This document shows, one piece after another, positions 44,045 through 53,860 of a DNA stretch of 64,000 bases. Position 1 is the first letter of the stretch. Every line of letters begins with the position of its first letter. The stretch lies in the NCBI GenBank assembly GCA_030457805.1, contig JAKDUG010000001.1, forward strand, positions 30,487-94,486. Reading direction: 5' to 3'. Under the pieces are notes generated by a model that ran no database searches, had not been told where the DNA came from, and saw only the letters and a list, made by a program, of their open reading frames with translations. The position numbers and the translations under genes were made by a program. Origin of the DNA: Psychroflexus sp. (GTDB taxonomy: Bacteria > Bacteroidota > Bacteroidia > Flavobacteriales > Flavobacteriaceae).

Positions 44045-44150
44045 GCGTAAATTTTTAGCTAAAATAATACATTTGAATGTCAATTTATTTAGAAGCATTA
44101 TAAATTAGCATTTAACAAAACAGTCTATTCCGAAAATCATTGTTAAGTAT

Positions 44151-44158
44151 TACTTTTG
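44151..44158 (+). promoter_or_regulatory. -7 box (TACTTTTG) of the act-cox operon
   Basis: TAnnTTTG in the divergent intergenic region. Confidence 0.55.
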
Positions 44159-44232
44159 TGATCAATTCGGGCTTGTCAAATTAACACAAAATTATTACTT
44201 ACAAGCGTAACAAAATAGTTAATTACAACACT

Positions 44233-45564
44233 ATGAGAAAGGTGACCTTAAATCAAGGAATTTTAAAGTATTTTTTACTATCCATTCTTATCGTTTCACT
44301 ATCAAGCACTTATGCGCAAGAAAGTGAAGCGGAGGAATCAGCAGAAAGCACAGAAGCTGCGATTCCTGGAGCTGACCCTGCGGAGGGTAAAGACTTATTC
44401 AACTCACTATGTGCTGCGTGTCACAAACCCTACAAGGATGGCGTAGGTCCTGCGCTACATGGCGTTACTGACCATAGAGACATGGAGTGGCTGTACAAAT
44501 GGATAGCAAACAGTCAAGATCTTATTGCTTCAGGTGATCCTGAAGCTGTTGAGATCTACAATGAATGGAACAAGGTTTCGATGAATGCCTTCCCGCAATT
44601 GAGCGAAGAAGACATCGACAACATCATATCTTATGTAGAGCAACCAAAACCAGAACCTAAAAAGAAAACAGCTGATACAGCAACTGCAAGTGCAGACGGC
44701 GGTGGCTCTTCTGGTGTTTCAAATGAAGTGATCATTGGTGCTTTAGCATTTATCTTATTAATGCTAGCGGTGATTCTTTATTTAGTCAACAAAACACTGC
44801 GTAAATTTGCAGCTGCTAATGGTGTTGAACTCGATATAGATAAAAATAAGGAAGCAAGAAAGCCAATTTGGGTTGCCTTTGCTGAAAACCAATTTTTAAT
44901 ATTAGTTACTGTGGGTGTCATGCTCATTGTCGTCACATGGTTTGGCTACGGTGCATTAATGAATATCGGTATTGATAAAGGCTATGAGCCAATTCAGCCA
45001 ATTCACTACTCACACAGAATTCACGCAGGTGATAACCAGATAGAATGTAAGTACTGCCACTCTTCGGCACGAACTTCAAAACAATCCGGAATTCCTTCTT
45101 TGAACGCATGTATGAACTGTCACCAACAGATTGGTGAGGTTGCTGAAGAAACTGCCACGGAAGAATACTCAAAAGAATTTTACGATGAGGAGATCTTAAA
45201 ACTGTACGATGCTGCAGGTTGGGATCCATCATCACAATCTTATACTGGCGAAACAAAACCAGTGAAGTGGGTAAGAATTCACAACTTACCAGATTTTGCC
45301 TATTTCAACCACTCTCAGCACGTGAGTGTTGGACAGATTGACTGTCAGACATGTCATGGGCCGGTTGAAGAAATGGAAATCATGTACCAAGATGCGCCAT
45401 TGACTATGGGTTGGTGTATCGAGTGTCACAGAGAAACAAACGTGAAAATGGAAGGCAACGAGTACTATGAGAAAATTCATGAGGAACTTGCCAAGAAATA
45501 TGGTGTCGAAAAAGTTACCGCTGCACAAATGGGTGCAATCGAATGTGGTAAGTGTCACTATTAA
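44233..45564 (+). CDS. actA: Alternative complex III multiheme cytochrome c (monoheme + pentaheme)
   Basis: Six CxxCH motifs: CAACH, CKYCH, CMNCH, CQTCH, CIECH, CGKCH. Confidence 0.93.
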   Translation: MRKVTLNQGILKYFLLSILIVSLSSTYAQESEAEESAESTEAAIPGADPAEGKDLFNSLCAACHKPYKDGVGPALHGVTDHRDMEWLYKWIANSQDLIASGDPEAVEIYNEWNKVSMNAFPQLSEEDIDNIISYVEQPKPEPKKKTADTATASADGGGSSGVSNEVIIGALAFILLMLAVILYLVNKTLRKFAAANGVELDIDKNKEARKPIWVAFAENQFLILVTVGVMLIVVTWFGYGALMNIGIDKGYEPIQPIHYSHRIHAGDNQIECKYCHSSARTSKQSGIPSLNACMNCHQQIGEVAEETATEEYSKEFYDEEILKLYDAAGWDPSSQSYTGETKPVKWVRIHNLPDFAYFNHSQHVSVGQIDCQTCHGPVEEMEIMYQDAPLTMGWCIECHRETNVKMEGNEYYEKIHEELAKKYGVEKVTAAQMGAIECGKCHY

Positions 45565-45592
45565 TATTAATGAAGAAAATTTGAATCGAGAT

Positions 45593-48500
45593 ATGTCATC
45601 AGAAAAAAAATATTGGAAAAGTGAAGCACAACTTAAAGGGACTGATCCTGCGTTGAAATCACTTGAAGAGAACGAATTTGTAGAGCATATTCCTACAGAT
45701 GAATTCTTGGGTGATAAAGAAAAGCTTGAGGACTCTAAGACGACACGAAGAGACTTCTTGAAATACGTTGGATTTAGTACAGCTGCAGCATCTCTTGCTG
45801 CTTGTGAAGGTCCAGTTATCAAATCTATTCCTTATGTCGTTCAGCCAGACAGACTCGTTCCTGGTGTTGCTGATTACTACGCGACAACAATTGCGAATGG
45901 CTATGATTTTGCAAGTGTTCTCGTGAAGACCAGAGAAGGACGCCCAATTAAGATTGACAACAACACTAGTGCGAAAGAATTTACTGCAGGAAAAGCAAGA
46001 GTACACGCTTCAGTCCTAGACTTATATGACATCAAGCGTCTGCAGAATCCACAGATTGAAGGCCGAGATGCCACCTGGTCTGAATTTGATGAAAAAGTAG
46101 GGATCGAACTCAAGTTGGCATCGGAGAAAAAGATCGTTCTACTGACACAGACATTTGCAAGCCCATCAGTAGATAGGTTAATCAATGAATTCAAAGAAAA
46201 ATATCCAAATACAGAACAGATCGTTTATGACTCTGTTTCTGAAGAAGCTGCTTTAAAAGCTTTCCAAAGTAAACACGGTTACAAAGCACTTCCTAATTAC
46301 GACTTCAGTCAAGCTGATACAATTGTCAGTGTTGGTGCCGATTTCTTAGGCGACTGGCAGGGTGGTGGTTTCGACGCAAGCTATGCAAGAGGCCGTGAAC
46401 CACAGAACGGAAAGATGTCTAGGCACGTTCAGTTCGAAGCAAACATGACTTTATCAGGTGGTAATGCCGATAAACGTGTGGCGACTAAACCTTCAATGCA
46501 AAAGCAAGTTTTAGTTGAAATATACAATCAGGTTGTCTCAAGAGCTGGTTCGACTGATTTAAATAAAAAAACACAAAAGGCTGTTGATGCCGCTGTGAAG
46601 TCACTAAAGAAAGGAGGCTCTCAATCAGTTGTTGTCACTGGCATTCAGGATGAAGGTGCACAACGCATGGCGCTTGAAATCAACGCAGCACTTTCAAGTA
46701 CAATTATCGATACTGATAACGCAAGAATGATTCGCCAAGGCGAGAATTCAAAAGTTGATAACCTAATTAAAGAAATGCAATCAGGTCAGGTTGGCGTTTT
46801 AATGACTGCTGGAATTAATCCTCTTTACAGTCTTCCAAATGCAGATGCATTTAGTGAAGCCATGGAAAATGTTGATGCAACTATTGCCTTCAGCATGAAA
46901 ATGGATGAAACAGCAAAACAAGCCAAATATGTGGCGGCAACACCTCACTTCCTCGAATCTTGGGGTGATGTTCAGTTGACTAAAAACACATTTAGCTTAG
47001 TACAACCGACTATTCAGCCTCTTTTTGACACACGTCAATTTGAAGCTTGTCTTTTAAACTTCGTTGCTGAGTCAACAGACTACTATGGGTTTATCAAAGA
47101 AACATTTGCAAAGAAATTCGATGGCTTGAAATGGAATCAAAGTCTCCATGATGGCACCTTTACATACGAAGACGCACAAAACATAAATGCAACTGATGCA
47201 ATGCCATCGGCCTTTAATGCAAGTGCAGCTGCACGCCAATTAACGGCGGGCTCAGGTGAAGGTCTAGAACTGACTTTATATACAAAAACAGCAATGGGTG
47301 ACGGGCAGCAAGCCAACAACCCATGGTTGCAAGAAATGCCAGACCCAATTACAAGAACATCTTGGGACAACTACATTACAGTTGCTAAAAGTGATGCTGA
47401 AAGCTTAGGTCTTAAAAATTACAATGTCGATGACGGCGCTTTAAATGGAGACTATGTCAATATTACTTTAGGTGATGTTTCACTTGAAAAAGTTCCTGCT
47501 TTTATTCAACCAGGGCAAGCACCAGGTTCAATCGGACTTGCACTTGGCTATGGAAAAACAGAATCTATTCAAGAGGAAATGCAAGTTGGTATCAACGCAT
47601 TTAAATTATACAAAGATTTCCAGAGTACACAAGATGTCTCATTGACGAAGACAAATGGTATTCATGAATTTGCCTGTGTACAGTTACACCACACAATGAT
47701 GGGCCGCCGTGATATTGTCAAAGAAACAACTTTAGAAATCTTCAACACAAGTGATAAAGACGCATGGAATAAAACACCTCAAGTCTCTTTAAACCACAAA
47801 GAGACTGATGTAACCTCTCCGGATGTTAACTTATGGGAAGAGTTTGACCGTGATATCGGACACCACTTCAACCTTTCTATTGACTTGAACTCATGTACGG
47901 GTTGTGGCGCGTGTGTGATTGCTTGCCACAGTGAAAACAACGTTCCTGTTGTTGGAAAGCATGAAGTGCGAAAAAGTAGGGATATGCACTGGTTGAGAAT
48001 TGACAGATACTACTCATCTGAAGATACTTTACAAGGTGACTATGATAAGAAGAACGACATGTCTGGCTTAAGCGAGTCTATCAGCCAATTTGATGAATTA
48101 GAAGAACCTTCAGAAACAGATGTTCAGGTTATTTTCCAACCTGTAATGTGTCAGCATTGTAATCACGCTCCTTGTGAAACTGTATGTCCTGTTGCAGCAA
48201 CAGCACACAGTAGACAAGGTCAAAACCACATGACTTATAACAGATGTGTGGGAACGCGTTACTGCGCTAACAACTGTCCTTATAAAGTCAGACGTTTCAA
48301 CTGGTTCCAATACTCACAAGATGACGAATTTGACTACCACATGAACAATGACTTAGGCCGTATGGTCTTAAACCCAGATGTGACTGTGAGATCAAGAGGC
48401 GTCATGGAGAAATGCTCATTGTGTATCCAAAAAACGCAAAAAACAATTTTGGATGCCAAGCGAGACGGCAGAGTGATTGAGGATGGAGAATTCCATACAG

Positions 48501-51296: not shown

Positions 51297-52604
51297 ATGT
51301 ATAAGATGTCAAAAAACTTACGACTCACTGCTATAATTTTAATGATTGTAGGTGCTGTTGGATTAATTTATAGCTTCATAGACGCTCCTTCTTCAGTGGA
51401 AGAGGTCCAAGAAATGCTAGCAGCAGAACATCATGGTGATGTAGATGCGAGCCAAACAGCAAGTGCTGCAGATGCTGCGCAAGCTAAAAATGATCACGAA
51501 GGATCTCATGCAGATCATGTACTCACTCAATTGAAAAATAAACCGTGGACAGCTATTTATACGTCAACCTTATTTTTCTTTTTGCTAGCTTTAGGAGCTT
51601 TTGCTTTTTACACTATTCAGCACGCTTCACAAGCAGGATGGTCACCCGTTTTATTCCGCGTCATGGAAGGTATCTCACAATATATGCTCCCAGGTGGAAT
51701 TATTTTGTTTGTCCTCTTTGTGTTTTCGGCTTTCAACATGAATCAAATCTTTATCTGGATGGATCCAGATATCGTAGCAAATGATCCAGTTATTGCAGCG
51801 AAAACAGGTTACCTTAACGTCCCGTTTTTCTTGATCAGAGCTATTATTTATATCGGTGGTTGGGTCTTGCTTTCTAAAATGATTATCGGCAACTCAAGAA
51901 AGCTTGATAATACGCCTGATATGAAACTTCACAAAAAGAACTTTAAATTATCGGCTATCTTCTTGGTATTTTTCATCGTCACTGAATCTATGATGTCGTG
52001 GGATTGGATTATGAGTATTGACACACACTGGTTCAGTACACTTTTTGGATGGTATGTTTTTGCAAGTATGTTTGTAGCAGGGATCACAGCAATTGCATTA
52101 GTTACTGTTTATCTCAAAAAACTAGGCTACCTAGACTTCGTCCACAGTAGCCATATTCATGATTTAGCAAAATACATGTTTGCTTTTTCTATTTTTTGGA
52201 CCTACTTATGGTTCTCACAATTTTTATTGATCTGGTATTCAAATATTCCTGAGGAAGTCACTTATTACGCAGCAAGAATTCAAGACTATCAATTGCCGTT
52301 CTTTGGGATGCTTGCCCTCAACTTTATTTTTCCAACATTAATCTTGATGAACTCTGACTTTAAACGTATCAATTGGATCGTTATCTTTAGTGGAATTATC
52401 ATTTTAGTAGGGCATTACCTCAATTTCTATGTCATGATTTCTCCAGGTACAGTCGGCGCTTCATGGTTTATTGGAATTCCTGAAATAAGTTCTATTCTTT
52501 TGATTGCAGGATTGTTTATATTTGTGGTCTTTAATGCAATCGGGAAGGTGAATTTATTACCTAAAAACAACCCGTTCCTTAAAGAGAGTAAAGACTTTCA
52601 TTAA
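51297..52604 (+). CDS. actF: Alternative complex III subunit F
   Basis: Polytopic; WDWIMSIDTHWFSTLFGW, HDLAKYMF, WYSNIPEE. Confidence 0.92.
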   Translation: MYKMSKNLRLTAIILMIVGAVGLIYSFIDAPSSVEEVQEMLAAEHHGDVDASQTASAADAAQAKNDHEGSHADHVLTQLKNKPWTAIYTSTLFFFLLALGAFAFYTIQHASQAGWSPVLFRVMEGISQYMLPGGIILFVLFVFSAFNMNQIFIWMDPDIVANDPVIAAKTGYLNVPFFLIRAIIYIGGWVLLSKMIIGNSRKLDNTPDMKLHKKNFKLSAIFLVFFIVTESMMSWDWIMSIDTHWFSTLFGWYVFASMFVAGITAIALVTVYLKKLGYLDFVHSSHIHDLAKYMFAFSIFWTYLWFSQFLLIWYSNIPEEVTYYAARIQDYQLPFFGMLALNFIFPTLILMNSDFKRINWIVIFSGIIILVGHYLNFYVMISPGTVGASWFIGIPEISSILLIAGLFIFVVFNAIGKVNLLPKNNPFLKESKDFH

Positions 52605-52622
52605 GAATTAAATCAATATCAA

Positions 52623-52754
52623 ATGACGACATTGCTTATCCTATTAGTTATTGCATTGTTTGGCTTGACGCTATGGCAATTATCCAATATCATTAAATTA
52701 TCAAGAATTAATTCTGATAATGGTTCAAAGACAATTAGTCAGAAGGAAAAGTGA
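52623..52754 (+). CDS. 43-aa membrane mini-protein paralogous to the CoxB N-terminus
   Basis: MTTLLILLVIALFGLTLWQLSNIIKLSRINSDNGSKTISQKEK; 20 of the first 27 residues are identical to CoxB; not in the ORF track. Confidence 0.65.
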   Translation: MTTLLILLVIALFGLTLWQLSNIIKLSRINSDNGSKTISQKEK

Positions 52755-52795
52755 AAATCATCATTACTAAAACAAAAGAATAAAATTAACATCAA

Positions 52796-53860
52796 ATGAC
52801 GACATTACTTATAATCATAGTTATTGCACTTCTAGGTATTACGTTCTGGCAATTATCAAAAATCGTTAAATTGTCAAAGCCTGCTGATAGTAATGATACT
52901 GAGATTGCAGATAACAAAGACAATAAGACGCAAGCAAAGTTGATGCTTGTTTTTACTGTTTTCCTTTACGGATTAATGTTTTACTCATTCTGGGAGTACG
53001 GTAAATTATTACTGCCAGAATCTGCATCAGAACACGGACATACATTTGACCAATTGATGCTTATTTCAATGGGGCTTCTCATTTTCGTACAAATGATTAC
53101 ACAATTTTTGCTCCACTGGTTTGCTTACAAATACCACGGTAAGAAAGGTAGAAAAGCATTATTTTACGCAGATAACGATAAATTAGAATTTATCTGGACA
53201 ATTATTCCGGTGATTGCCCTAGCAGGATTGATCATTTACGGTCTGTTCAGCTGGAATGACATCATGAATTTAGAAGAAACTGATGATACGCTTGTCATTG
53301 AGATTTACGCTTATCAATTTGACTGGAGAGCGAGATATGCTGGAGATGATAAAACATTAGGAAAAGCAAACGTTCGCTTTATTGAAGGTGTCAATCAGCT
53401 TGGCCTTGATGAAAGTGATCCTTACACAGAAGACGATATTATTGTCAGCGAACTACACCTTCCAAAAGGGAAACCCGTCATCTTCAAATTTAGATCACAA
53501 GATGTTTTACACTCGGCTTACTTCCCTCACTTTAGAGCACAAATGAACGTTGTTCCTGGAATGATTACACAATTTGGTTTTACACCAACATTGACAACGG
53601 CAGAAATGCGAGAGACAGATCACATGATTGATAAAGTTCACAATATCAACGAGATCAGACAAGAAAACAGTATAGAGTTAGAAGCTAAAGGCGATATGCC
53701 TCTTGAAGAATATGAATTTGATTACTTCATGCTTTGTAACAAAATCTGTGGTGCATCTCACTACAATATGCAAATGAAAATCATTGTTGAAGAAGAAGAA
53801 GACTTTGATGCATGGTTGAGTGAACAACAAACATTTCAAGAATTAACAGCTAAAAAATAA
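52796..53860 (+). CDS. coxB: Cytochrome c oxidase (aa3) subunit II
   Basis: EFIWTIIP, YQFDW, DVLHS, CuA CNKICGASHYNM. Confidence 0.94.
   Translation: MTTLLIIIVIALLGITFWQLSKIVKLSKPADSNDTEIADNKDNKTQAKLMLVFTVFLYGLMFYSFWEYGKLLLPESASEHGHTFDQLMLISMGLLIFVQMITQFLLHWFAYKYHGKKGRKALFYADNDKLEFIWTIIPVIALAGLIIYGLFSWNDIMNLEETDDTLVIEIYAYQFDWRARYAGDDKTLGKANVRFIEGVNQLGLDESDPYTEDDIIVSELHLPKGKPVIFKFRSQDVLHSAYFPHFRAQMNVVPGMITQFGFTPTLTTAEMRETDHMIDKVHNINEIRQENSIELEAKGDMPLEEYEFDYFMLCNKICGASHYNMQMKIIVEEEEDFDAWLSEQQTFQELTAKK

Follow-up and report, generated by a model that had tools for sequence, protein, structure and literature searches.

Between actF and coxB of a Psychroflexus sp. genome lies a 43-aa open reading frame (mini-ORF; 52623..52754, plus strand; positions are those of the window, that is, the whole analyzed stretch of 64,000 nucleotides), which duplicates the N-terminal helix of CoxB. 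With moderate confidence we interpret this mini-ORF as a duplication relic that is tolerated, probably translated and under strongly relaxed constraint. We read the relic as still decaying and not as a dedicated new subunit, with at most mild constraint against disruptive changes in a membrane-inserted product.

The upstream gene actF (51297..52604, plus strand) encodes subunit F of ACIII and matched chain F of 6BTM, the ACIII structure of Flavobacterium johnsoniae (6btm_F, E = 7.6e-160). The downstream gene coxB (52796..53860, plus strand), the intact copy 2, encodes subunit II of cytochrome aa3 and matched Pfam COX2_TM and COX2 as well as TIGR02866; coxA follows, and its product matches Pfam COX1. 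The two flanking genes had therefore been named correctly in the initial annotation. The 43 codons of the mini-ORF translate as MTTLLILLVIALFGLTLWQLSNIIKLSRINSDNGSKTISQKEK and the N-terminus of CoxB reads MTTLLIIIVIALLGITFWQLSKIVKLSKP, the coxB start being located 173 nt 3' of the mini-ORF start, exactly as annotated. In a BLASTP comparison the peptide and CoxB shared 22/42 identities (E = 5e-6), confirming that the helix is duplicated; 20 of the mini-ORF residues 1-28, W18 and Q19 included, were identical to the CoxB of the same genome. Only CoxB residues 1-28 are covered in frame, and the Pfam COX2_TM and COX2 matches are located at CoxB residues 74-263. None of the three known variants of the mini-ORF matched a Pfam family or an NCBIfam family.

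CoxB displayed four hydrophobic segments, the first two of which (residues 2-20 and 47-65) are N-terminal of the canonical COX2 transmembrane pair. No solved chain matched CoxB residues 1-83, the PDB matches starting at residue 84. Among 63 distinct CoxB sequences Q19 was invariant, W18 was found in 62, position 22 was K or R and position 23 was I or V. The mini-ORF peptide directly copies the first segment of this flavobacterial N-terminal extension; unlike CoxB, it has neither the second extra helix, nor the COX2 transmembrane pair, nor the CuA (cupredoxin) domain.

A repeat search detected a direct repeat of 102 nt (52603-52704 versus 52776-52877) with 79% identity and a spacing of 173, and a second block of 29 nt (52726-52754 versus 52915-52943) with 76% identity and a spacing of 189. 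The 16-mer ATCAAATGACGACATT was present in exactly two copies in the 64-kb window, at 52618 and 52791, where shuffled sequences were expected to contain 0. The initiation context is thus duplicated along with the helix, as had been claimed, and these 16 nt are also the longest exact stretch common to the two copies.

The junction was aligned with those of G009 and G005, the closest unduplicated relatives, whose coxB has about 85% nt identity. Directly after actF, spacer 1 (52605..52622, plus strand), now 5' of the mini-ORF, duplicates the coxB upstream spacer and is identical to spacer 2 at 15/18 positions. Codons 1-28 (52623..52706, plus strand) are a copy of CoxB helix 1 and the following KLSR, with 79% nt identity to 52796-52879. 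The decayed rest of coxB codons 29-48 comes next (52707..52745, plus strand); it has suffered a net loss of 16 nt and is out of the ancestral frame. The mini-ORF, which begins as the coxB 5' fragment (copy 1), then runs into an actF 3'-end relic, GAAAAGTGAAAATCATCATTACTAA (52746..52770, plus strand), which contains its stop TGA at 52752-52754. This relic is collinear with G009, in which it corresponds to GAAAGTAAAAATTACCATTACTAA, encoding ESKNYHY and the stop; it aligns with the final 24 nt of G009 actF including the stop codon, and the spacer is next. Spacer 2 (52771..52795, plus strand) is the native coxB upstream region and is nearly invariant, with 1 change in 25 nt. The 50 nt just 5' of the real coxB are hence collinear with the actF end and spacer of the unduplicated G009 and G005, which gives the order actF, spacer 1, coxB 5' fragment, actF 3' relic, spacer 2 and coxB.

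Judged from this alignment, the order is the footprint of one tandem duplication. Its unit began about 25 nt 5' of the actF stop, included the spacer and ended at approximately codon 48 of coxB. Such an event would have left two fragments between the intact genes, a coxB 5' piece with its start region and an actF 3' piece upstream of coxB. The spacing of the second repeat block (189 versus 173) indicates an original unit of about 189 nt, of which copy 1 has since lost a net 16 nt, and because of this loss the mini-ORF residues from about 34 on are outside the ancestral coxB frame. The motif AAAG(T) is found at both ends of the unit (GCA AAG TTG in coxB, GAA AGT AAA in actF), and the join was probably made via this short repeat. 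At its birth the join would have placed a stop (AAG joined to TAA) right after CoxB residue 48, where the present TGA is located. The actF 3' end of the carrier clade encodes KDFH before the stop, in contrast to NYHY in the relatives, which is explained by the loss of 12 nt at the boundary between stop and spacer.

The assembly of G000, the genome of this window, is fragmented into 301 contigs, and a chimeric join of two strain variants during assembly or binning might produce a similar arrangement. However, the same architecture was present in eight further independent assemblies, obtained from different runs and comprising three diverged sequence versions, which excludes an assembly artefact. 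The two copies also have no exact shared stretch longer than 16 nt. We therefore assign a negligible probability to a chimeric origin.

The duplication was carried by three lineages, G000, L030 and the L040 type. The orthologue in L030 (P0003; one assembly) has 43 aa and 88% identity, and that of the L040 type (P0130; seven assemblies, clonal across seven samples) has 52 aa. The carrier samples include SRR25394044, SRR25394040, SRR25399925, SRR25400339, SRR28523200, ERR11040908, ERR11041270 and ERR11041291. When 1.84 billion representative proteins were searched exhaustively with HMMER, only two orthologues of the peptide were recovered, and word-index searches with both peptide variants recovered only each other or themselves. 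The ActF 90% cluster comprised the three lineages only and revealed no further carriers; the next ActF after this cluster, at 82% identity, was of the G009 type, which is without the duplication. Nothing nearer than 72% CoxB identity was found in the JGI metagenomes, and 0/72 flavobacterial coxB loci from metagenomes had an upstream duplicate. The duplication was also absent from the 40 other Psychroflexus species representatives, 23 of which gave one junction DNA match and none two. All 17 junctions that were read displayed an actF ending in ESKxYHY and the stop, then 22-27 nt and the coxB ATG, with nothing in between.

G000, L030 and the L040 type have the junction itself, the derived residues in copy 1 and the 12-nt deletion at the end of actF in common, indicating that the duplication occurred once. 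The three carrier lineages were about equidistant, with a pairwise dS of 0.2-0.45 in actC-coxA and a four-fold-site tree length of 0.34, and their dS to G009/G005 was 1.2-1.6. Copies 1 and 2 differed by a dS of about 0.8 over 28 codons. By these values, the duplication predates the split of the three carriers and postdates their split from G009/G005. The event would then belong to the stem of a small Psychroflexus clade, between its divergence from the closest species sampled and the separation of the carriers.

Two other candidates were rejected. An origin of copy 1 as a foreign allele, by recombination with the act operon of another species, would leave a step in dS across the junction, and none was present (dS to G009/G005: actF 1.49, coxB 1.34-1.64, coxA 1.2). 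A weak second match in the same genome (C170) was the start of an unrelated gene.

Some observations on the carrier contigs are reported separately. Only 2 of about 2200 positions differed between G000 and L030 in a stretch comprising actA and the start of actB (window 44089-46288 versus L030 1-2200), and the remainder of their 18.6-kb alignment was about 8-10% different; the near-identical stretch looks like a tract of recent recombination between the two lineages. The ActF of L030 (P0005; 7208-8515) was identical to the NCBI entry MDN6327503.1, 'MAG: hypothetical protein [Alkalibacterium sp.]'. The L030 contig carries a clear Psychroflexus-type flavobacterial act-cox operon and has probably been mis-binned into a Firmicute MAG. 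In ERR11041291 (L044 14-1320) actF was called as two ORFs of 178 and 241 aa, the upstream part being displaced relative to the other L040-type contigs, which may represent an actF indel or an assembly error.

The segments of the duplicated junction have evolved at very different rates since the carriers separated. Spacer 1 (18 nt) had acquired 5 substitutions across the carriers (0.28/site), in contrast to 0.04/site in the real coxB upstream region, where the actF relic and spacer 2 together had 2 changes in 50 nt and the relic (52746-52770) 1 change in 25 nt. The stretch homologous to the coxB upstream region was identical in G009 and G005. By these rates, strong constraint acts on the start region of the real coxB but not on that of the copy. 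The tail of the mini-ORF (52707-52745) had 16 substitutions in 39 nt and a tree length of 0.41/site, the fastest of the measured segments, and since the duplication it appears to have decayed freely. Its net charge was +3, +5 or -2 across the three lineages. In the L040 type a +1 insertion has changed the frame of the tail and moved the stop, so that the ORF ends 12 nt before coxB; in G000 and L030 it ends 41 nt before the coxB ATG.

These end points bear on a cis-acting explanation, in which ribosomes would cross the insert of about 190 nt and terminate near the coxB start, thereby preserving translational coupling or protecting the operon mRNA; the frame would be kept open and the peptide sequence would be unselected. 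The ORF does end within the strongly conserved 50 nt before coxB in all three lineages, the ancestral actF stop is at 22-27 nt before coxB, and the L040-type frameshift lengthened the ORF rather than truncating it. The region between actF and coxB has no terminator, which would also suit such a role. However, the postulated coupling is without direct evidence, and three lineages with an open frame of 43-52 codons would be only mildly unlikely by chance. The explanation predicts an omega near 1, with stops alone avoided, and the omega data presented below neither exclude nor favor it. We consider it improbable, and retain the tolerated relic as the preferred interpretation.

The surroundings of the coxB start displayed further unevenness. 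The region 52746-52933 had 2/50 changes upstream and 5/138 in the first approximately 46 coxB codons among the three lineages, synonymous sites included, which is low compared with a tree length of 0.34 at four-fold sites; G009 and G005 were also nearly identical in the homologous stretch. This invariance suggests that the coxB start region is constrained at the nucleotide level or that the tract was recently exchanged. An antisense ORF of 43 codons (52792-52923, minus strand) coincides with the invariant tract. The adjoining part of coxB encoding residues 47-100 (52934-53095) changed fast: its 162 nt had 24 substitutions across the three lineages and 4-8 replacements per pair, compared with none in the helix 1 region.

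The helix-coding part of the copy (52623-52706) accumulated 10 substitutions and one deletion of 3 nt among the three lineages, and a frameshift was found in none. The start codon and the hydrophobic helix were intact in all three lineages and the frame was open. The shortest branch at four-fold sites, that of the L040 type, carried eight of the 10 helix substitutions as well as the codon deletion. The replacements assigned to the stem after the duplication were I7L, I8L, L13F, I15L, F17L, K22N, V24I and K28R; the later ones were L26I in L030 and, in the L040 type, I6T, L8F, G14C and I23S, alongside the deletion of L5. W18 and Q19 were retained in the copies. All three copies have N in place of K22, a position occupied by K or R in 63/63 distinct flavobacterial CoxB sequences. 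CoxB entropy did not differ between changed and unchanged helix positions (1.24 versus 1.12, p = 0.36); the helix changes do not avoid CoxB-conserved positions.

The initial annotation had described the mini-ORF as apparently selectively maintained and had proposed dN/dS as a check. A branch codon model was fitted to 8 sequences of 28 codons (copies 1 and 2 of the three lineages, G009 and G005), the power of which is bounded by the three carrier lineages and the 28 alignable codons. Omega was 0.36 for copy 1 and about 0 for coxB, a significant difference (p = 0.00025). Tested against 1, the copy-1 omega gave an LRT of 3.12 and p = 0.077, based on three lineages and 28 codons; the crown only gave 0.38 (p = 0.16) and the stem only 0.31 (p = 0.27). 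The constraint on the copy is significantly relaxed relative to coxB, and its residual constraint is non-significant. Selective maintenance is accordingly not established, considering also that the frame of the tail varies and that conserved positions have changed. Relatives in which the segment is missing, frameshifted or interrupted by stops had been named as refuting evidence, and here the outcome was divided: the duplication is absent from the other species representatives, and the L040 type has a frameshifted tail and a helix codon deletion, but the ORF is open in all three carriers.

The claim of purifying selection had been based on the pattern of replacements. A recount of the first 27 codons reproduced the numbers given, with 6 codons differing only synonymously and 7 replacements, 6/7 of which were hydrophobic-for-hydrophobic. 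However, about 55% of random replacements in NTN codons stay hydrophobic, and the conservative pattern is therefore only weak evidence of selection. Hydrophobicity was retained in 6/6 cases on the stem (p = 0.03) and in 8/10 overall (p = 0.1).

Comparisons of rates gave similarly marginal results. The 10 changes observed in the helix compare with about 27 expected from the four-fold-site rate of the neighboring genes (p = 1e-4), but the local synonymous rate near the junction was only about 0.2, with which the deficit has a p of about 0.02-0.08. The helix had fewer changes than spacer 1 and the tail together (10/81 versus 21/57, p = 0.0009), a comparison that is unreliable because the tail changes are clustered: they fall largely into two clusters resembling single complex events, and L030 alone, for example, has 6 substitutions inside 14 nt. 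Local rates moreover vary strongly: the synonymous sites in coxB codons 1-46 and the non-coding 50 nt 5' of coxB were slower still. By hand count, frameshifting indels were 0 in the 84-nt helix versus at least 8 indels in the approximately 130 nt around it. In a neutral simulation with 0.5-0.8 substitutions/site, the ATG and 28 stop-free codons survived in about 5-9%. All these signals of residual helix constraint are marginal and non-independent, since they derive from the same few changes.

The start region of the mini-ORF had an MFE of -2.2 kcal/mol compared with -1.7 kcal/mol for coxB, and was as unstructured as the starts of actF, coxB and coxA. A promoter and terminator scan between actF and coxB revealed nothing above shuffles. 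Translation of the copy is likely given the unstructured start region and the continuity of actF and coxB without a terminator, and by keeping an open, coxB-like start region within the act-cox operon the copy is probably translated into a single-pass membrane peptide. The hydrophobic segment was located at peptide residues 2-20, with a mean hydropathy of 1.9-2.2 in all three variants. According to the positive-inside rule, the peptide would be oriented N-out/C-in in G000 and L030.

ACIII and cytochrome aa3 form a supercomplex in F. johnsoniae, as stated in passages of PMC8552683 and PMC8286838 that cite Sun et al. 2018, which agrees with the background given in the initial annotation for Flavobacteria. 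The mini-ORF might encode a new accessory peptide, that is, a small single-pass subunit, an assembly factor or a competitor of ACIII-aa3, with the helix under selection and the cytoplasmic tail dispensable. The roles suggested in the initial annotation, as an extra subunit, an assembly placeholder or a competitor, are speculative. The intact ORF, ATG and hydrophobic helix in all three lineages, the accessible start region and the retention of W18 and Q19, which are invariant or nearly so in CoxB, agree with such a role, and so do an omega of 0.31-0.38 on both stem and crown, a helix rate of about one third of the four-fold-site rate and a sole helix indel that is in frame. However, omega was not significantly below 1, either overall (p = 0.077) or in the crown (p = 0.16), and the 8/10 crown changes and the codon deletion on the shortest (L040-type) branch look like neutral decay there. 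Positions conserved in CoxB were changed (K22N, I23S and the L5 deletion), and the start region of the copy itself drifts at a neutral-like rate. The peptide is confined to one shallow clade, and the N-terminal helices of CoxB are without a solved structure to suggest a binding site. An accessory peptide is therefore possible but rather unlikely in our view, and we are doubtful that selection has kept a free CoxB helix, shortly after its birth in one Psychroflexus clade, as an extra component or modulator of ACIII-aa3. The preferred reading is that the tail has decayed freely and that the helix, once duplicated, came under strongly relaxed constraint.

If the mini-ORF were functional, it would represent a datable small membrane protein born from a fragment of a large subunit, in the operon of a structurally solved complex. 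As the evidence stands, it illustrates that a recent partial duplication can yield a short ORF with an apparently 'conservative' substitution pattern; in helix-coding NTN codons, selection is only weakly evidenced when one hydrophobic residue replaces another.

Bacterial terminal oxidases have well-known small single-helix subunits and assembly factors, among them CydX (37 aa), CydH, CioY (34 aa), CcoQ (58 aa) and CcoS (52 aa) (PMC12648545), a precedent in favor of an accessory role. The mini-ORF resembles them as a short ORF in or near an oxidase operon with one predicted membrane helix and 43-52 aa, and it has no sequence relation to them. CydX, CydH, CioY, CcoQ and CcoS are conserved across many taxa and were shown to bind or to be needed for their oxidase. 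In contrast, the mini-ORF is confined to three close lineages with an unconserved tail, and its product is at most a putative partner of the oxidase.

The closer likeness is to relics of partial tandem gene duplications. Like these, the locus shows two direct repeats next to each other, with both flanking genes represented by reciprocal fragments and with possible short microhomology at the junction; it is likewise absent from outgroups with the same gene order, and displays relaxed constraint and decay by indels in one copy. All four defining features tested were found, and by sequence comparison the mini-ORF qualifies as such a relic. It differs from a silent pseudogene in that the coxB fragment retains its full start region together with a membrane helix that is self-sufficient, and has stayed open in three lineages, so that an expressed product is plausible.
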